Shown here piece by piece: positions 17,925 through 27,236 of a stretch of 64,000 bases of DNA. The position numbers and the translations under genes are program-made. The notes under the pieces were generated by a model. It did not search any database and was not told where the DNA came from. It was given only the letters and a program-made list of their open reading frames with translations. This DNA comes from a candidate division TM6 bacterium GW2011_GWE2_36_25 (GTDB lineage: Bacteria > Babelota > Babeliae > Babelales > UBA12409): positions 156,996 through 220,995 of the forward strand of contig LBRU01000001.1 of NCBI GenBank assembly GCA_000991575.1, read 5' to 3'. How positions within the stretch are numbered: the stretch's first letter is position 1; every line of letters starts with the position of its first letter.

Positions 17925-18548
17925 ATGCGTAAACTTCTTTTGAGCGCCCTTTTAATACCGGGCGCACATCTTTCAGCAAAGGCTGATACTGTTTTTAAAG
18001 AGATAAAAGAATTAATGGACAGTTTTAATAAAAGGTTTGAAGTTGTTGAAAAATACATGAATAATTTTCCAGAGTATAAAAGTTTATCTAAAAAAGCTGT
18101 TGAAGAAAAAAAGTCTGACCATGGAAAGGCTGTTGTTAACAATAAAATAGAAATGACAGCGAATAATGAGTTTGTGATCATAAAATTGTATCTTGGTGAA
18201 TTAGATCCCGATAAAATAGTTATTGATGCATTTCCTAATTCCTTGAATGGTATCGTTCCTCTAAGAAATGGTGAAGCAAAGTTTTATGTAAAAGATCGTA
18301 TGTTTGGCGTATCTTTTGAACAGACAAGTAAGGATGAGCAGCAAGTAGAAAATAAGGGGAAGGATTCTTCGGTGCGGGCTACTCATTCATTTGCTTCTTC
18401 AATTGGTTCAAAAATACAATCACTTCCTGCTGAGGTTTGTGATTTGAAAAATATGGTTGCTAATTATGAAGATGGTGTTCTTGAATTAAAACTTCCTCGT
18501 GTTCCACAAAAGAAAGGAACTAAAATTAATGTTGCAAAAAGTGCATAA
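17925..18548 (+). CDS. Hsp20/alpha-crystallin family small heat-shock protein with N-terminal signal peptide
   Basis: C-terminal ANYEDGVLELKLPR and KINV (I-X-I/V) motif; hydrophobic N-terminus. Confidence 0.8.
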   Translation: MRKLLLSALLIPGAHLSAKADTVFKEIKELMDSFNKRFEVVEKYMNNFPEYKSLSKKAVEEKKSDHGKAVVNNKIEMTANNEFVIIKLYLGELDPDKIVIDAFPNSLNGIVPLRNGEAKFYVKDRMFGVSFEQTSKDEQQVENKGKDSSVRATHSFASSIGSKIQSLPAEVCDLKNMVANYEDGVLELKLPRVPQKKGTKINVAKSA

Positions 18549-18565
18549 CTTTTCACAAGAAATAG

Positions 18566-18596
18566 AAAATGGCCCGGTTAAAACTGGGCCATTTTT
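18566..18596 (+). terminator. Intrinsic terminator after the Hsp20 gene
   Basis: AAAATGGCCC...GGGCCATTTTT inverted repeat with T-tract. Confidence 0.75.
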
Positions 18597-18615
18597 GTAT
18601 CCTTCATTAACGAAG

Positions 18616-19746
18616 GTGCATAATCATACCTGTTGGTTAGAGATAGATAAATGTCGATTTTTTTCAAATGCATATTGGCTTAAAAAGCTTGTTGGATTAA
18701 ATCGTAATATTGCGGTTGTTTTAAAGTCAAATGCATATGGCCATGGATTACTTGAGGCTGGTTCATTGTGTGAGGCTTCTCCTTTTATTAATTACATGGC
18801 TGTTTTTTTGTTAAGTGATGCTATTCGTTTAAGAAATAAGGGAATAAGAAAGCCTATTGTTGTTTTGGGTGGATATGATCTTTCCCTTGTCGAGGGAATT
18901 AACCATAATATTGATTTAGTTGTATATGATTGGCACATCGCTGAAGATATTTCTACATTGGCACGATCGCTCAAAAAAAAGGTTAATGTTCAAATAAAGG
19001 TTGATACGGGATTGGTTCGTTTGGGATTTTTACCTGAAGAAACTATTGCTGTTATTGATTATCTTGTACAAAATCCTTTTATTTCTGTTACTGGTATGTA
19101 TACGCATTTTGCTGAGTCTGATGCGCAAGACACTTCTTTTACTTTTGAACAGATTAGTCGTATGCAATGGGTTTGCGAGAAAGTTAAAGAGCGAAAAATC
19201 ACAATTCCGTTTATTCATTTAGCTAATACAGCTGCAACGTTGCGTTTTCCTGAGGCGCGAGGAACGATGGTTCGTTGCGGTGGTGCGTTGTATGGATCAT
19301 ATAAAGATGAGCGTTTTTATGAGCATGCTAAAACTATTTTACCCGGGTTTTCTCTTAAAACATGTTTATCATTAAAATCGCGCATCATGATGATTCGTGA
19401 AGTTTCTGTTGGAATTCCGATTGGTTATGCGCGGACATTTAAGACAACCAAGCCGATGCGTTTAGCTATCGTTGGTGTTGGTTATTACGATGGGTATGAC
19501 CGTCGTTTATCAAATACCGGTAAGATGGTCATTCATAATCATGTTGTTCCCATTATAGGGCGCGTTGGGATGAATATGACAACGGTGGATATTACCGATA
19601 TTCCGCAGATTAAAAAAGGGGATGAGGTGTTAGTTATTGGGGATCACGATGGTATTCGTCTTAAGGACGTAGCCCGTCAGATGGGCGTCATTGAATATGA
19701 AGTAATGCCGCCATTAAATCCATCACTGCCGCGTATTATTATTTAA
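18616..19746 (+). CDS. alr: Alanine racemase (copy 1)
   Basis: WLEID, AVVLKSNAYGHG (PLP lysine), KVDTGLVRLG, THFA, IGY catalytic Tyr, GYYDGY, GRVGMN. GTG start at 18616 preferred because the track start (18499) lies upstream of a terminator. Confidence 0.95.
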   Translation: MHNHTCWLEIDKCRFFSNAYWLKKLVGLNRNIAVVLKSNAYGHGLLEAGSLCEASPFINYMAVFLLSDAIRLRNKGIRKPIVVLGGYDLSLVEGINHNIDLVVYDWHIAEDISTLARSLKKKVNVQIKVDTGLVRLGFLPEETIAVIDYLVQNPFISVTGMYTHFAESDAQDTSFTFEQISRMQWVCEKVKERKITIPFIHLANTAATLRFPEARGTMVRCGGALYGSYKDERFYEHAKTILPGFSLKTCLSLKSRIMMIREVSVGIPIGYARTFKTTKPMRLAIVGVGYYDGYDRRLSNTGKMVIHNHVVPIIGRVGMNMTTVDITDIPQIKKGDEVLVIGDHDGIRLKDVARQMGVIEYEVMPPLNPSLPRIII

Positions 19747-19747
19747 G

Positions 19748-20845
19748 ATGTCACAAGATTTTTATTCTTGGATTACGCTCAATAAAGCGCAATTCTTTTT
19801 TAATGCTGATTATATTAAAAAACAGATTGGTGTGCAGGTAAAGCTGGGTGCTGTTATTAAATCAAATGCTTATGGGCATGGATTATTGCATATTGCACAG
19901 TTGTGCCAAGAATCGCGTTCTATTGATGTGCTTATTGTATTCAGCTTACATGATGCACTTTTATTGCGCGAAAAAGGCATTTTGAAACCACTTATTTTAA
20001 TGGGTATTCTTGATGCGCCATTGCAAGAAGTTTCAGAGAAAAACATTGATCTTGTCGTGCATAATCGTTTTTTTGCAGAGCGTCTGATAATATATGCGCA
20101 GCAACACCAACAGAAATTTCGTGTTCATATTAAAGTTGATACTGGTATGAATCGTCTCGGTTTTTCTCCTGATGAATTGCCGAATATTATTTATTTATTA
20201 AAACAGAGTTTATATATCTCAATTGTTGGGGTGTGTTCGCATTTTGCTGAATCGGAGAATGTGGATACTGCTTTTACATTATTGCAATTACAACGTTTTG
20301 ATTGTTTGTTTTCTCAATTAAATGATCTTGAATATATTCATATTTCCAATACCGCTGGCACCCTAAATTTTTTGAATGCGCATCACTCGTTAGTTCGTTG
20401 TGGAGGAGGATTATATGGATTGGATGTGCCTGATAAAAAACTTTCGTTAAAACCCATTTTATCATTAAAAACAAAGATTATTGAAATACGGGAGGTGAGA
20501 CCCCAATGTTCAGTTGGTTATAATAGAACGTTTGTTGCGAATTCTATGCGTAAAATAGCAATTGTTCCCCTCGGTTATTATGATGGTCTTGATCGTAGAC
20601 TTTCTAATAGAGGTTTTATGAATATTAAAGGAAAAGTGGTGCCAATTATTGGGCGTGTGGCAATGAATTTAACAACGCTCGATGTAACTGATATTCCACA
20701 GGTGAATATACATGATGAGGTTCTTGTTTTGGGCGATGGTGATTTAGTTACTCCTGCTCAGTATGCTCATTTGTTGAATACTATTGAATACGAGATAACG
20801 GCCAGACTGAATCCTTTAATTAAGCGAATTTTAATTGAAAGATGA
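19748..20845 (+). CDS. alr: Alanine racemase (copy 2)
   Basis: GAVIKSNAYGHG, HIKVDTGMNRLG, SHFA, VGYNRTF, GYYDGL, GRVAMN. Confidence 0.95.
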   Translation: MSQDFYSWITLNKAQFFFNADYIKKQIGVQVKLGAVIKSNAYGHGLLHIAQLCQESRSIDVLIVFSLHDALLLREKGILKPLILMGILDAPLQEVSEKNIDLVVHNRFFAERLIIYAQQHQQKFRVHIKVDTGMNRLGFSPDELPNIIYLLKQSLYISIVGVCSHFAESENVDTAFTLLQLQRFDCLFSQLNDLEYIHISNTAGTLNFLNAHHSLVRCGGGLYGLDVPDKKLSLKPILSLKTKIIEIREVRPQCSVGYNRTFVANSMRKIAIVPLGYYDGLDRRLSNRGFMNIKGKVVPIIGRVAMNLTTLDVTDIPQVNIHDEVLVLGDGDLVTPAQYAHLLNTIEYEITARLNPLIKRILIER

Positions 20846-22358: not shown

Positions 22359-23108
22359 ATGGACCGCAGCACGGTGTCGCTTGTGGTTTTTGGAGCGTTT
22401 TTTATGTCTGGACAAATGAGTAAAGATTTGATCATAATAGGGCATCGTGGTGCGCATGGGCTTGAAGTAGAAAATACGTTAAAGTCATTCGAAAAAGCTA
22501 TTAAGTTGGGCGTTGATATGATTGAGCTTGATGCTCGCCAATGTAAATCAGGCCATTTGGTGGTTTTTCATGATGAAACGGTCGATCGTTTAACTGACGG
22601 TTCGGGTCATATCGCTGACATGACGTTGGCGCAATTAAGAAAACTAAATGTTCAAAAAGACCATAAAATTTCTACATTGGATGAAGTTCTTCAATCAATT
22701 AATAAACGATGCAGAGTTGACATTGAGCTTAAGGGTGTGGGGACGGGAAAGTTGGTGGCGTTATTATTACGTCGTTATTTAAAACAAGGGTGGTTGCCGG
22801 AGACTTTTTTGGTAACATCCTTTAATTTTTATGAATTGAATGATTTTCATGAAGCGGTGCCACAGATCCCCATTGGTATAATTTTTGATCGTTTACCCGT
22901 TGATTATACTTTATTAGCTCAAGAACTTGGCGCACAAGCAATCATCATGCAGCATGCACTTATCGCACCGTCATTAATGGAACGGGCAGCCGCTCGTAAT
23001 TTACGCGTGTATGCGTGGACTGTTAATAAGGTTATGTCTGTAAAGAATTTAAGGAAGCTTGGCGTTCAGGGCATTGTAACTGATTATCCAAATAAAATGA
23101 TAAAATGA
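22359..23108 (+). CDS. Glycerophosphodiester phosphodiesterase (GDPD)
   Basis: IIGHRGA, ENT, IELD, VVFHD, IELK, YAWTVN, GIVTDYP. The true start may be a downstream ATG. Confidence 0.95.
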   Translation: MDRSTVSLVVFGAFFMSGQMSKDLIIIGHRGAHGLEVENTLKSFEKAIKLGVDMIELDARQCKSGHLVVFHDETVDRLTDGSGHIADMTLAQLRKLNVQKDHKISTLDEVLQSINKRCRVDIELKGVGTGKLVALLLRRYLKQGWLPETFLVTSFNFYELNDFHEAVPQIPIGIIFDRLPVDYTLLAQELGAQAIIMQHALIAPSLMERAAARNLRVYAWTVNKVMSVKNLRKLGVQGIVTDYPNKMIK

Positions 23109-23196
23109 TATTTAAAATCTAATTTTTTTGTAGCTTTTTATTTTATTCTGTATTTACATAAATTGAATACGTTTCTAAAAAATAAAATGAGGAAGG

Positions 23197-24261
23197 GTGT
23201 TGAAGATGCGTATTAGTTTATTTAAGAAAAATTTTTATTTTGATGATGTTGTTGTATTAATAGCAATGTTTTTTGTTGGGATTTTAATTTTCTTTTATAG
23301 TAATAGATTAATTACGACTGATCCCATGCCTGAAAATGTTTTTATCGTTCCTCAAGAATTTTCAAAAGTATCACGGACATTTTCTACCATTAATACCGGA
23401 TTTATTCTTACAGGAATTCCCCTTGTTAATCCGAATGAGAATGAGTTTGTTGTAGAAGGTCTTTTGTGGTTTGAGTATGACCCGTCGCGTATTTCAAGTG
23501 AAAGTATTAATAAATTTTCTTTTGTAAATGGAACGATAGAAGCAAAATCAGAACCGAAAGTTGAGGCGCGAGGAAATTTGCTTTTGGTTAAGTATCTCAT
23601 AAAATTACGTTTTAGTAGCAGGCTTGATTACGAGATGTTCCCATTTGATGATCATCGGATCTATTTTATTTTGACAAATCTTTTTTTAAATTCAGGTGAA
23701 TCGGTCTATACTATTGCTTCAACTGACTTTATTGTTCCTAAAAATCTTTTGATTCCAGGATGGAGTTGCAAAGAATATAATGCGATGTTTGGAAAGACGC
23801 CAATTGTTGAAAAATTGAGTGGTCTTGAAGAAAGTTACCCACAGGTGATTTTTATTTTGAAGTTACAAAAAAATAGTTTGGGAATTATCTTTACGATTAT
23901 TATTCCTTTGTTGATTATGTTTTATATTTCCTTAATTTCGATCATGCCAATTTATGAAGTAAGTGGCGTGAAGCAAAAAAGATTTAATTGGGAGTATTAC
24001 AGTATCGCCATAGGTAATTTTGCTGCGGTTTTAGCATATCGCTATGTTATTCAAACGGTATCGCCGCAGGTTTCCTATCTTACAGTGGCTGATTTTTTAT
24101 ATATATATATTCTTTCTACTTCGGTCATTGCTCTTGTTGTTCCTTTTATTACCATGCAAATTCCAGTTAAAATTGCACGTTTTTTATCTTTTTTTCTGAT
24201 CATTTTTTTAAGCGTAGTATTGATCGCATTAATTTATATTTTACTTTTCGTGAGGGTCTAA
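23197..24261 (+). CDS. Prokaryotic pentameric ligand-gated ion channel (GLIC/ELIC-like)
   Basis: beta-sandwich ECD with F.V.G.LWF.Y, LDYEMFPFDDH (Pro-loop), PGW, then four TM helices with IIPLL in M1 and VSYLTVAD at the start of M3. Confidence 0.85.
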   Translation: MLKMRISLFKKNFYFDDVVVLIAMFFVGILIFFYSNRLITTDPMPENVFIVPQEFSKVSRTFSTINTGFILTGIPLVNPNENEFVVEGLLWFEYDPSRISSESINKFSFVNGTIEAKSEPKVEARGNLLLVKYLIKLRFSSRLDYEMFPFDDHRIYFILTNLFLNSGESVYTIASTDFIVPKNLLIPGWSCKEYNAMFGKTPIVEKLSGLEESYPQVIFILKLQKNSLGIIFTIIIPLLIMFYISLISIMPIYEVSGVKQKRFNWEYYSIAIGNFAAVLAYRYVIQTVSPQVSYLTVADFLYIYILSTSVIALVVPFITMQIPVKIARFLSFFLIIFLSVVLIALIYILLFVRV

Positions 24262-24274
24262 AAGGGAGTTGCAC

Positions 24275-26521
24275 ATGAATAGAAAAAATTTATATTATCT
24301 CATTGGTTTTATTTTGGGCTCCTTTGTTGAAAGTCGATCGACTTTTTCAACCGTAGATGACTTATTGTTATTCACGCGAACTCATCAGGAAGAATTGAAA
24401 CCAGACAGTTTGGCTTATTCAGATCCGTTGAGCCCTACCTTTTATTCTTCTTATGCACGTTCGTTAAAATTAAAAAATAGATTTTTTAATTTTATGCGTA
24501 GTTTGATTGGCATCGGCATTCGAGTTGATTGGTCTGATCAATATTTTGAAGCGATCATGAAAAAAGCATGTAAAGAGCAGGCTGAATTTAAAAATATGAA
24601 CGGAGAGATAGTTGGTCGTCCTGAACATAGATATGTAATTTGGGGTGATTTGTGTGGTTCCGTGCATTCATTTGTGAGATGTTTAGATGAATTAAAGAGA
24701 AAAAATTTTATTGATCAAAATTTACGTCTTATGCCAGATTATTATATGATTTTTACCGGTGATGTTATTGGTTCTGCTGCGTATAATTTAGAGATACTTT
24801 CAATAATTTTTCAATTAATTGTTCTTAATCCAGGAAGAATTATTTACTTGAAGGGGCGTCAAGAGAGACAGTTTAATTGGCATAATTTTAATACCTATCG
24901 TGAACTTGAAATAAAGGTGCCGAAACATCGAATTTCTTCATTTGTTTCAAATTTAGATCTGTTTTTTGAAAATCTTTTGGGGACGCTTAAGATTTCTTAC
25001 ATTGACCAACATCAGCAGAAGCGAGATGTTTTATTTTCTTATGAAGGATTTGAAAAGTTGAAGAGTGCGCCTACTAATGAAATTTTAATTCAAGTAAAAT
25101 CTAACAAAGGAATTTTTGCTTACACTTTAACGAATGGGCTTTCACTCCGTTGCCCAGAATGTGGCATTACAACGTGGACCATTTTTTCTGCTCCCACGTA
25201 TGTCTCCCAAGAATTTTATAAATTTTATAACGATTCATTTTGTATTTTGGAAATGGCTTCTAATGGTTATGATTGGCTTATAAGTCACTTTTATCGTCGA
25301 TTTGATGGTAAAGGTGAATTTGATGCGGAATTTTTTAATTTTTTAACAGGTCAAAAATTTGAATCAGAAAAAGTTGCAAAGGAATTTCTTAAAGAGCAGA
25401 AAAAATATCTTCCTGTGGTACGAACAGCTTCCTTGGATCATGGCAATCAATTTATTTTCGGATCTTATTTGGATTTAAGTGGCTCTATTAAAAATATTGG
25501 AGAAGATTTAAAGCGTGGCTTGTCGTTAAGATTTAATAAGGAAAACATTGAATATGGTGGTATTAATGGGAGATTTTTAAGATTAGTTGCGCTTGATGAT
25601 CGCTATAATCAAACTCTTACCTTAGATGCGCTTATAAAATTAAAGAATGACTTTAAAACTAATTTATTGGTAAATGGATTAGGAACGCGGCCATTACAAA
25701 CAGCGATGGATTTTGCCAGTAAAGAAAACATGAAAATATTATTTCCTTATACGGGTGCTTCAATTGGGCGCCAGGAGAACTTGAAAAATATTGTTAATCT
25801 GCGTGCTTCTTATGCTGATGAAGCAGAAGCATTAGTTGACTATGGTGTTAATACGTTAAGAAAAAATCGTTTTGTTATCTTTTATCAAGATGATGCATAT
25901 GGACGTGCGGGGCGAGATCCTGCTAAAAAGTTGCTCGTTGAAAAATATAAGATAACCGATATTTTAGAAGTTTCGCATTCCGTTGGTTCATTGCAGCTTG
26001 ATAAAGCAGCTGAAGAAATTATTAAATTTGGTCCATCTGCTATTTTGTTCTTTTCAATTGAAGTAGTGTCAGCCGAACTGATTGAAAAGATTGGAATAAA
26101 ATCATTAATGAATGTTGCTCTTTTGGCGGTTAGTTTTATGTCTCATAGTTTTACAGAGTTCTTAAAAACAAGGGGATTGTCATCTGTTCTTTCGCAAGTC
26201 TTACCAAATTCCCATGGTGATACTCCTATTGCCCAAGAATGTCGTGATACATTAAAAATGTACATGCCGAGCGTGGATATTAATGCGGATCTTTTTGAAG
26301 GGTATGTTTCTGCAAGTTTGCTTGTTGAAGCTATTAAAATTATAGGTTCTGACGTTACGAGCGAAAAACTTCTTCGTTATTTTGAATCACTTAAAAATGT
26401 AAACTTTAAGGGGTTGAAACTCAATTTTAATTCAGAAACGCGTCAGTTAATGCATAATGTTTGGCTTGATGTAGGAAAGAAAGATTGGATTATTTTTGAT
26501 ATGAGCAAAAATAATCAATAA
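24275..26521 (+). CDS. Exported fusion: degenerate PPP/calcineurin-like phosphoesterase domain plus C-terminal type-1 (LivJ-like) periplasmic binding domain
   Basis: WGDLCGS, FTGDVIG, YLKGRQE; then GINGRFLRLVALDDRYN, NLRASYADEA, IFYQDDAYG, FEGYVSA. AGGGAG RBS precedes ATG 24275. Confidence 0.8.
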   Translation: MNRKNLYYLIGFILGSFVESRSTFSTVDDLLLFTRTHQEELKPDSLAYSDPLSPTFYSSYARSLKLKNRFFNFMRSLIGIGIRVDWSDQYFEAIMKKACKEQAEFKNMNGEIVGRPEHRYVIWGDLCGSVHSFVRCLDELKRKNFIDQNLRLMPDYYMIFTGDVIGSAAYNLEILSIIFQLIVLNPGRIIYLKGRQERQFNWHNFNTYRELEIKVPKHRISSFVSNLDLFFENLLGTLKISYIDQHQQKRDVLFSYEGFEKLKSAPTNEILIQVKSNKGIFAYTLTNGLSLRCPECGITTWTIFSAPTYVSQEFYKFYNDSFCILEMASNGYDWLISHFYRRFDGKGEFDAEFFNFLTGQKFESEKVAKEFLKEQKKYLPVVRTASLDHGNQFIFGSYLDLSGSIKNIGEDLKRGLSLRFNKENIEYGGINGRFLRLVALDDRYNQTLTLDALIKLKNDFKTNLLVNGLGTRPLQTAMDFASKENMKILFPYTGASIGRQENLKNIVNLRASYADEAEALVDYGVNTLRKNRFVIFYQDDAYGRAGRDPAKKLLVEKYKITDILEVSHSVGSLQLDKAAEEIIKFGPSAILFFSIEVVSAELIEKIGIKSLMNVALLAVSFMSHSFTEFLKTRGLSSVLSQVLPNSHGDTPIAQECRDTLKMYMPSVDINADLFEGYVSASLLVEAIKIIGSDVTSEKLLRYFESLKNVNFKGLKLNFNSETRQLMHNVWLDVGKKDWIIFDMSKNNQ

Positions 26522-26633
26522 ATTGCTCATTAAGTTTTTAATAACAAACGTACTTAATGCGATGGTTATTATTTTTAACTCTTTATTTTAATTTTAAAAT
26601 TTTTATATCGTGAGAAAAAAGGGGAGGGGTGTG

Positions 26634-27236
26634 ATGAAGTTTTTGTATAGTTTTCTTTTTGTTTTTTATTTTCTTTATTCAATGGACAACTCTCCAGCAA
26701 GTGCTCTTTTTGATTTTATTGAGTTACGGGATGAATTACAGAAAATTTTTGGATCGGCTTGGGAAAGTTTATTTTTAAAGCATTGTGCTGAGGGTAAGAC
26801 AATATGTGACTTATTGGGAATTTATGATAAAGAAGGCCGATTGGGTGATAAATTAGATCTCCCTGATGATGCTTTGCTTTCTTATGATGCAGCTTTTTAT
26901 CAGTTTGTTTTTACGATGAATGAATTAATATTATGTAAGTTGCCTTATGGGAATATTTATGTTTTTTTAAATTGCTTGCCACGCATTAAGCGTTGTGGGG
27001 AGGTTCTTTTCTTAAATTATAATAAATTGAGGGGCTTAAAATCTTTAGATTTAAAAAGTTTACATGCGGGACACAGACTTTTATCGTGTTATATAAAGTT
27101 CTTTTTGCAAAGTGTTCGAGATTATGCTTTGGATTTATCGCAGGAATCATTTGCGCGTGCACAGTTAGCGCGTGATGGTACAAAATGGCAAGATCCATTT
27201 GAAAAGTTGTTACAATTAATAGATGAAGAAGATTGA
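26634..27236 (+). CDS. Secreted hypothetical protein
   Basis: GGGAGG RBS; signal peptide MKFLYSFLFVFYFLYS-MD. Confidence 0.7.
   Translation: MKFLYSFLFVFYFLYSMDNSPASALFDFIELRDELQKIFGSAWESLFLKHCAEGKTICDLLGIYDKEGRLGDKLDLPDDALLSYDAAFYQFVFTMNELILCKLPYGNIYVFLNCLPRIKRCGEVLFLNYNKLRGLKSLDLKSLHAGHRLLSCYIKFFLQSVRDYALDLSQESFARAQLARDGTKWQDPFEKLLQLIDEED

Follow-up and report, generated by a model that had tools for sequence, protein, structure and literature searches.

A predicted pentameric ligand-gated ion channel homolog and its putative periplasmic binding-protein partner in a candidate division TM6 bacterium

INTRODUCTION

The prokaryotic ligand-gated ion channels of the pentameric type (pLGICs), among them GLIC, ELIC, sTeLIC, and DeCLIC, are the main structural models for the human neurotransmitter receptors. 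GLIC is the proton-gated pLGIC of Gloeobacter violaceus. To our knowledge, the natural ligands and physiological roles of the prokaryotic members are mostly unknown. What, then, does a bacterial channel of this kind sense, and how? The question is raised by a gene pair in a stretch of 64,000 nucleotides from the candidate division TM6 bacterium GW2011_GWE2_36_25 (assembly GCA_000991575.1, contig LBRU01000001.1, positions 156,996 to 220,995 of the forward strand), which we call the window and whose numbering is used for all positions below unless another contig is named. The first gene, here called the channel gene, had been described in a preliminary description, made from the letters alone, as a homolog of the Cys-loop receptors; the second, the partner gene, lies immediately behind it and encodes a protein of a different kind. 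Residues of the channel protein are counted from GTG 23197 throughout. Coordinates of the features discussed are collected in Table 1.

RESULTS

Relationship to pLGICs

Homology of the channel protein to pLGICs is visible only with family profiles and fold comparison. A phmmer search with the single sequence against all PDB chains gave no match. A profile built from the 8 closest sequences reached GLIC at E~1e-6, in an alignment that begins at the Pro-loop and extends to M4. With 119 family members in the profile, GLIC was reached at E=1.2e-18 (70 bits), over the same span, and 208 distinct PDB sequences were collected at ≤0.01. The preliminary description had named a search with the Neur_chan hidden Markov models as one check on its proposal, an empty result to count against it, and taken literally the outcome went against the proposal: the Pfam models PF02931 and PF02932 gave no match at E≤1. 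Among the 119 relatives PF02931 was touched by 7, all below threshold with a best E of 0.0014, and PF02932 by none. We take the missing match as a limit of model sensitivity and not as a structural criterion.

The AlphaFold2 monomer calculated from the 119-sequence alignment has a predicted local distance difference test score (pLDDT) of 93.1 and a predicted template-modeling score of 0.88; it replaced a mediocre model made from 8 sequences (pLDDT 72.8). When the model was compared with the PDB by Foldseek, the best 50 listed matches were all pLGICs (GABA-A, GlyR, GluCl, and GLIC), with E~1e-15 and a probability of 1.00. The best agreement was with GLIC, at a template-modeling (TM) score of 0.71 and a root mean square deviation of 4.8 Å over 316 columns. 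The weaker model from 8 sequences returned the same pLGIC list, including DeCLIC, ELIC, and sTeLIC.

Seven positions are conserved across the superfamily according to Table 1 of Jaiteh et al. (2016, PMC4795631): Y119, P120, D122, W160, R192, P204, and P247 in GLIC numbering. Our hidden Markov model alignment maps them to F148, P149, D151, W189, K225, P237, and P290 of the channel protein. The F/Y-P-x-D signature at the tip of the beta6-beta7 loop is conserved in the superfamily at 100% for Pro, 93% for Asp, and 96% for F/Y (PMC4795631); in our family (n=119) the Pro and the F/Y are each found in 119/119 members and D, E, or N in 108/119. W189, the core aromatic residue of the beta-sandwich and the counterpart of GLIC W160, is Trp in 115/119. 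P237, at the kink of M1, and P290, in the M2-M3 loop, align with GLIC P204 and P247 and are invariant (119/119). The pre-M1 position, which precedes the Pro of M1 by 12 residues, is Lys225 here and R in 46/119 or K in 44/119 members of the family, and so is basic rather than strictly Arg. By this alignment six of the seven signature positions are occupied as expected, and the seventh, before M1, has Lys where GLIC has Arg.

The open reading frame and the motifs on which the preliminary description had relied are all present: FPFD (residues 148 to 151), PGW (187 to 189), IIPLL (235 to 239), VSYLTVADF, and M4. M2 starts WEYYSIAIGNFAAVLAYRY, and VSYLTVADF comprises the M2-M3 loop and the start of M3. 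Judged from the family alignment, these motifs are not due to chance, since P149, P237, and P290 are invariant, W189 is nearly so, and His153, which follows the Pro-loop and is a hallmark of the family, is found in 117/119, and since the family profile reaches GLIC at the value given above. Family profile, fold search, and signature residues together bear out the original assignment, and we conclude from them that the channel protein is a true but very divergent homolog of the pLGICs, or Pro-loop receptors.

The partner protein and its linkage to the channel

The partner has a signal-peptide-like N terminus followed by a linker of about 100 residues, a domain resembling PPP-type metallophosphatases, and a type-1 periplasmic binding protein (PBP) domain. 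The last of these matches Peripla_BP_6 (PF13458) at E=5.3e-26, with 92.5 bits compared to a cut-off of 31.7, and in the PDB it matches 4kv7 (E=5.6e-25) and 3lop (E=2.5e-14). The relationship of the preceding domain to the PPP fold is seen in the Metallophos Pfam matches of two fused homologs described below, P0027 and P0031 (E=1.9e-9). Where PPP enzymes have the catalytic motifs GDxHG, GDxxDRG, and GNHE, the partner has GDLCG, GDVIGS, and GRQE. All three motifs are kept in none of 34 partner homologs, and the phosphatase-like domain is therefore a pseudo-enzyme throughout.

The stop codon of the channel gene (24259 to 24261), the Shine-Dalgarno sequence AAGGGAG, and ATG 24275 follow one another so closely that the junction appears to be translationally coupled. 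The two genes probably form a tight operon, co-transcribed and with coupled translation. Scans for promoters and terminators did no better than chance (23 promoter-like sites compared to 20.6 expected), and no boundaries of transcription units can therefore be claimed from them.

The arrangement is widely conserved. We compared 37 distinct channel genes outside the genome of the window, each followed by 1 kb or more of sequence downstream. A phosphatase-like and/or PBP coding region is next on the same strand in 29/37, and a PBP-type gene is nearby in another arrangement in 4/37, which gives 33/37 with a PBP-type gene in the vicinity. In a maximum-likelihood tree of the channel proteins, the arrangement with the partner downstream is scattered over the whole tree and is therefore old. 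Some relatives also have a second PBP gene directly upstream of the channel gene, and this combination of PBP upstream plus partner downstream is essentially confined to one clade.

The two proteins also occur naturally as one. Among the best 150 representative clusters, 12 contain proteins of ~970 to 1112 residues with the channel at the N terminus. Three of these 12 were scanned (P0027, P0031, and P0056); all have Peripla_BP_6 behind the channel, and two also have Metallophos. Three more clusters contain proteins of 743 to 796 residues, and the two that were scanned, P0021 and P0093, consist of a channel and Peripla_BP_6. The last 635 residues of P0031 (467 to 1101) align with the partner from the window at 30% identity and E=5e-95. 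The C terminus of a pLGIC is extracytoplasmic, which places the fused domains in the periplasm, in agreement with the signal peptide that the separate partner has. A link between the channel and the protein starting at 24275, suggested in the preliminary description, thus has strong support from the conserved synteny and from the natural fusions.

The only true channel fusion among the fetched loci is L041, which is labeled Parachlamydiales (label unconfirmed). Open reading frames of 1127 to 1175 residues at L026 and L034 were considered as further fusions and rejected; they are phosphatase-PBP-PBP proteins, that is, partners in which the PBP domain is present twice, following a single channel gene. 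Loci L023 to L025 have two or three tandem partner genes, again behind a single channel gene. Such tandem or double partners suggest an interchangeable set of sensors for one channel.

Membrane topology and the additional N-terminal helix

Ahead of the pLGIC core the channel protein has an additional hydrophobic helix, TM0. A hydrophobic segment of 19 residues beginning at about residue 16 is found in 117/119 members of the family, and the residues that precede TM0 in the channel include four basic and zero acidic ones. Four relatives (P0049, P0080, P0083, and P0017) have 100 to 240 residues of polytopic membrane sequence ahead of TM0; in these TM0 is internal, and it therefore is not a cleavable signal peptide there. 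The preliminary description had taken the N-terminal helix for an uncleaved anchor, and both its conservation and its internal position in the extended relatives agree with that view. On this comparison of sequences TM0 is a fifth predicted transmembrane helix throughout the family. It implies a topology with the N terminus in the cytoplasm and both the beta-sandwich and the C terminus in the periplasm.

The polytopic modules of P0049, P0080, and P0083 (541 to 577 residues) and of P0017 (446 residues) contain an internal repeat (...GISHL...R(I/L)SAY...) and have no Pfam match. Open frames of 563 to 570 residues in the relatives G012, G032, and G048 suggest that the N-terminal extension is real.

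The beta-sandwich has a set of near-invariant aromatic residues, W91, F92, F107, F109, and W189. In the AlphaFold2 model the loop between M3 and M4 has only about 4 residues, which leaves no intracellular domain. The loop between M1 and M2 has a basic insertion whose columns are gapped in ~98 to 114 of the 119 members; it is common to the close orthologs P0002 to P0006, a genus-level clade.

The pore helix

With P290 taken as 23', the residues of M2 fall at S269 (2'), G273 (6'), A276 (9'), A280 (13'), R282 (15'), Y283 (16'), and T287 (20'). We infer this register from the alignment to GLIC. It gives a pore-facing stripe of small or polar residues (S2', G6', A9', and A13') and a conserved aromatic residue at 16', which is Phe in 104/119 members and Tyr283 here. 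Arg282, part of an LAYR motif, is found at 15' in 102/119 and is another hallmark of the family. A register shifted by one, which would bring I, V, or L to 9', was rejected: it would put the near-invariant Arg282, at 16', into the pore; P290 is fixed as 23' by the spacing P290-x3-Y-x4-D; and the small/polar stripe fits the canonical register. In the canonical register the likeliest site of a hydrophobic constriction would be the aromatic residue at 16' rather than a Leu at 9'.

A Glu before M2 had been read as a hint of cation selectivity. That claim has weakened. The residue, Glu266 at -1', corresponds to E/N/D/N/-/D in the closest orthologs and to a column of T/S/gap/L/N across the family, and we have set cation selectivity on this ground aside because the position is not conserved.

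How the channel may be gated

We propose, with a probability of about 0.72, that the channel is a binding-protein-coupled sensor channel, made of a pLGIC and a secreted PBP partner. The channel protein would assemble as a homopentamer in the inner membrane, would conduct ions, and would be gated from the periplasm by the partner through direct contact. The ligand would be bound by the partner, whose Venus-flytrap domain would capture a small periplasmic solute, for example a host-derived amino acid or a similar metabolite. The dead-phosphatase domain would be the adaptor that docks the binding domain onto the periplasmic domain of the channel, and closure of the binding domain on its ligand would gate the flow of ions through M2. 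The suggestion in the preliminary description that the channel reports host entry or the conditions of a vacuole is speculative.

A bolder form of this proposal, which we offer only tentatively, is that the agonist is itself a protein: a ligand-loaded Venus-flytrap, held in place by the dead-phosphatase adaptor, may open a pore that closes at the aromatic 16' ring and has no hydrophobic gate at 9', a gate otherwise universal. If true, this would be the first channel of the Cys-loop type whose gating depends on a binding protein, separate or tethered at the C terminus, instead of a small molecule at its own orthosteric site, and the energy-parasitic Dependentiae would have a direct electrical read-out of host metabolites.

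Several observations weigh against the sensor channel proposal. The channel protein has no Pfam or NCBIfam match of any kind at E≤1. Its M2 lacks two features that are common in the superfamily without defining it, a basic residue at 0' (79%) and Leu (75%) or Phe (13%) at 9' (together 88%; PMC4795631). Position 0' is Tyr267 here and I/R/S/A in the family, with Arg in 16/119 (~13%). Position 9' is Ala276 here and T in 56, S in 26, A in 19, and G in 10 members, with Leu not among the six commonest residues. With so atypical an M2, conduction and gating may differ from those of known pLGICs or be lost. Solitary channel genes make up 4/37 of the set compared above; solitary members, one of them a paralog in the same genome, imply that the channel evidently can work without an adjacent partner. 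Finally, the closest solved relatives of the binding domain are structural-genomics entries, which give no pointer to the class of its ligand.

The main rival is that gating takes place through the periplasmic domain of the channel itself, in response to a small ligand, to pH, or to a divalent cation such as Ca2+, as in GLIC, ELIC, sTeLIC, and DeCLIC, and that the partner only concentrates or presents the ligand or modulates gating allosterically, as Tasneem et al. proposed for PBP and Cache partners. We regard this as possible but doubtful. It is kept alive by the solitary members, including the paralog, and by the good conservation of the beta-sandwich with its near-invariant aromatic residues, and it has precedents in the PBP and Cache partners of other bacterial pLGICs (PMC549065) and in the accessory domain of DeCLIC, which modulates gating and does not cause it. 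Against it, conservation of the pairing is strong and covalent fusion has occurred repeatedly, suggesting that the partner is an integral part of the system, and no residues of an orthosteric pocket were identified in the channel.

The atypical M2 could also mean that the protein keeps the pLGIC fold without conducting, and acts in the membrane as the scaffold or receptor to which a periplasmic binding-protein complex is anchored. The absence of Leu from the six commonest residues at 9', which between them cover 117/119 members and among which T, S, A, and G prevail, the small share of basic 0' residues, and the small residues G6', A9', and A13' facing the pore are all in keeping with such a role, which we nevertheless consider improbable. 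With an M3-M4 loop of so few residues and no cytoplasmic output domain, a non-conducting receptor would signal to nothing. The residues that couple the extracellular to the transmembrane domain, namely the Pro-loop Asp, the pre-M1 basic residue, and the M2-M3 Pro, are kept, as is expected only if gating is preserved, and the small/polar stripe of M2 follows the periodicity of a canonical pore lining.

It is very unlikely that the two genes are neighbors by accident and that the binding protein serves an ABC importer unrelated to the channel. The closest solved relatives of the partner by sequence are annotated as Leu/Ile/Val-binding proteins, and one fused homolog bears the public name [quoted passage not shown], both as one would expect of a transport protein. 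Set against this are the natural channel fusions and the synteny in 29/37 relatives. No component of an ABC transporter, permease or ATPase, was found among the open reading frames of at least 150 residues within ~10 kb of the channel gene, and the binding domain always stands behind a pseudo-phosphatase domain, a domain absent from the binding proteins of transport systems. That the channel protein is a hydrophobic protein with a merely accidental likeness to pLGICs, as the lack of Pfam, NCBIfam, and single-sequence PDB matches might suggest, is extremely unlikely in view of the profile match to GLIC, a list of the 50 best fold matches consisting only of pLGICs, and the agreement at the signature positions.

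Distribution and the paralog in the same genome

An exhaustive phmmer search over 1.84 billion representatives found 495 clusters of the family, at 50% identity, at E≤1e-3 and 368 at E≤1e-10; a word-indexed search gave only 8 clusters. The family is present in 34/61 related genomes and in 25/44 genera of the same order, with 1 to 3 copies each, and the sequences of the relatives are labeled Candidatus Dependentiae or Babeliales. Their public name is "hypothetical protein", apart from the fused homolog mentioned above, and no paper came up when the full-text literature was searched for Dependentiae in combination with "ligand-gated ion channel". The family is thus a large, very divergent, and unannotated branch of the pLGICs that is common in Dependentiae/Babeliales.

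Metagenome-assembled genomes labeled Myxococcota/Myxococcales, Pseudomonadota, or Parachlamydiales also carry members (L029, L030, L033, L037, L039, L041, and others; labels unconfirmed). These could be mislabeled Dependentiae bins or could reflect a genuine spread to other host-associated lineages.

The assembly that contains the window has 1.07 Mb in 17 contigs and is 94.6% complete. The small size at this completeness and the Candidatus Dependentiae/Babeliales relatives confirm the earlier impression of a reduced, parasite-type genome. The paralog lies on contig 10 at 19174 to 20145 on the minus strand (L002 1498 to 2535) and encodes 345 residues, 28% identical to the channel. It is solitary, with an EF-G-like gene on one side, an Asp/Asn-tRNA-synthetase-like gene on the other, and no gene for a binding protein next to it. 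In the maximum-likelihood tree it sits on a long separate branch, and the duplication is therefore old.

The locus

The features of the channel and partner genes are listed in Table 1. Translation of the channel probably starts at ATG 23206, giving 351 residues (MRISLFKK...), and not at the GTG from which we number. This start is favored because AGGAAGG abuts the GTG and has a spacing of 9 nt to the ATG, and it also agrees with the N termini of the orthologs.

Table 1. Positions in the window of the channel gene, the partner gene, and their predicted features
Feature	Position	Strand	Basis
Shine-Dalgarno sequence of the channel gene, AGGAAGG	23190..23196	+	Read from DNA; abuts GTG 23197, 9 nt 5' of ATG 23206
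Channel gene, predicted divergent pLGIC (Pro-loop receptor) subunit	23197..24261	+	Uninterrupted open reading frame; 354 residues from GTG 23197
TM0, predicted extra N-terminal membrane anchor, residues 13-35	23233..23301	+	AlphaFold2 helix; 4 basic residues precede
Predicted periplasmic beta-sandwich, residues 63-225, equivalent to the pLGIC extracellular/ligand-binding domain	23383..23871	+	AlphaFold2 strands; Foldseek, ~310-365 columns to pLGIC chains
Pro-loop signature F148-P149-F150-D151 (family motif FPxDDHR)	23638..23649	+	Aligns with GLIC Y119-P120-F121-D122
M1, residues 229-257, with invariant kink Pro237; pre-M1 Lys225 just upstream	23881..23967	+	AlphaFold2 and alignment
Clade-specific 10-residue insertion in the M1-M2 cytoplasmic loop, residues 256-265, SGVKQKRFNW	23962..23991	+	Alignment columns
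M2, putative pore helix, residues 265-288	23989..24060	+	AlphaFold2; register from GLIC alignment
M3, residues 297-319; preceded by M2-M3 loop P290-x-V-x-Y294-x4-D299	24085..24153	+	AlphaFold2 and alignment
M4, residues 324-352	24166..24252	+	AlphaFold2
Shine-Dalgarno sequence of the partner gene, AAGGGAG	24262..24268	+	Read from DNA; directly 3' of channel stop codon
Partner gene, 748 residues from ATG 24275 (frame open from TTG 24269)	24275..26521	+	Pfam, motifs, PDB matches
Pseudo-phosphatase (PPP/Metallophos-like) domain	24629..25438	+	Degenerate motifs; Pfam matches of fused homologs; 30% identity to P0031 467-1101
Type-1 periplasmic binding protein domain (Peripla_BP_6, LivJ-like)	25460..26467	+	Pfam and PDB matches

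Open reading frames of at least 150 residues that lie within ~10 kb of the channel gene in the window encode FtsZ, FtsA, a SpoU methylase, two alanine racemases, a deoxynucleoside kinase, a GNAT protein, a glycerophosphodiester phosphodiesterase (GDPD), TruA, S6, and a LexA-like repressor. The GDPD gene (22359 to 23108, plus strand; E=2e-44) is directly upstream of the channel gene and stands in the same place in a relative of the same genus, with 62% identity. The two alanine racemases, at 18499 to 19746 and 19748 to 20845 on the plus strand, are full length and in tandem, each with Ala_racemase_N and Ala_racemase_C matches at E of ~1e-50; such a duplication is unusual for a genome as reduced as this one. 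An open reading frame of 208 residues (26610 to 27236, plus strand) with a signal-peptide-like N terminus begins 88 bp 3' of the partner gene. We considered it as a third component and left it out of the unit: Pfam gives no match for it, and a homolog is absent from the fetched loci, including L022 from the same genus.

DISCUSSION

A binding-protein partner that is dedicated to the channel and repeatedly fused to it is a built-in clue to the input of a bacterial Cys-loop channel. It makes the question of what such a channel senses, and how, directly testable. The branch offers natural experiments in pLGIC design: a fifth membrane helix has been added, the pore does without a Leu gate at 9', and a pseudo-enzyme is the likely adaptor. 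Little is known of the biology of the Dependentiae, and here the branch points to a sensory device that is conserved and has been retained in genomes of ~1 Mb.

Comparison with known systems

GLIC (3eam, 4hfb, and 6hyr, among others) is the best match of the channel both by family profile and by structure. The two share a Pro-loop that lacks Cys and reads F/YPFD, the Trp in the core of the beta-sandwich, the Pro residues of M1 and of the M2-M3 loop, a very short loop between M3 and M4, and probably a homomeric assembly. They differ in that identity is just ~15 to 17%, in the His of the channel where GLIC has Gln after the Pro-loop Asp, and in the Lys that replaces the pre-M1 Arg. The channel has no hydrophobic residue at 9', where GLIC has Ile, and has a conserved Arg at 15'; it also has a dedicated periplasmic partner. 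An uncleaved TM0 takes the place of the signal peptide of GLIC, in keeping with the general description by Tasneem et al.

Closer in organization are the systems surveyed by Tasneem, Iyer, Jakobsson, and Aravind (2005, PMC549065), who described bacterial pLGICs with N-terminal fusions to PBP-I, Cache, or MCP-N domains and pLGIC operons with PBP-II or Cache proteins, and who suggested that channel and accessory sensor act together. As in those systems, a pLGIC core and a PBP-type sensor are here fused or encoded in the same operon, and may jointly sense a small molecule. In the earlier examples the PBP-I domain is N-terminal, between the signal peptide and the ligand-binding domain, whereas here it is encoded by the downstream gene or fused after M4. 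It is also always preceded by a degenerate PPP-phosphatase domain, and the channel branch is beyond detection by Pfam. The fifth helix and the pore without Leu at 9' likewise set the channel apart from the sensor-pLGICs described before.

DeCLIC is the only partly characterized pLGIC with an accessory (N-terminal) domain (PMC12664993). This pLGIC of Desulfofustis (7q3g and 9eva), a top Foldseek match of the channel, resembles our system in being prokaryotic and in having a periplasmic accessory module that makes up about half or more of the mass of the receptor. In DeCLIC, however, the module is N-terminal and in cis and consists of calcium-binding beta lobes that modulate gating, whereas here it is a pseudo-enzyme with a Venus-flytrap domain, separate or fused at the C terminus. 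The ionotropic glutamate receptors are a functional analogy only: there, too, closure of a Venus-flytrap is proposed to gate an ion pore, but the pore is an unrelated tetrameric P-loop channel, and the channel parts are not homologous. The pairing of a sensor with a pLGIC is already known; the present system differs in the downstream or C-terminal position of the sensor, the dead PPP domain, the fifth helix, the pore without Leu at 9', and a channel branch out of the reach of Pfam.

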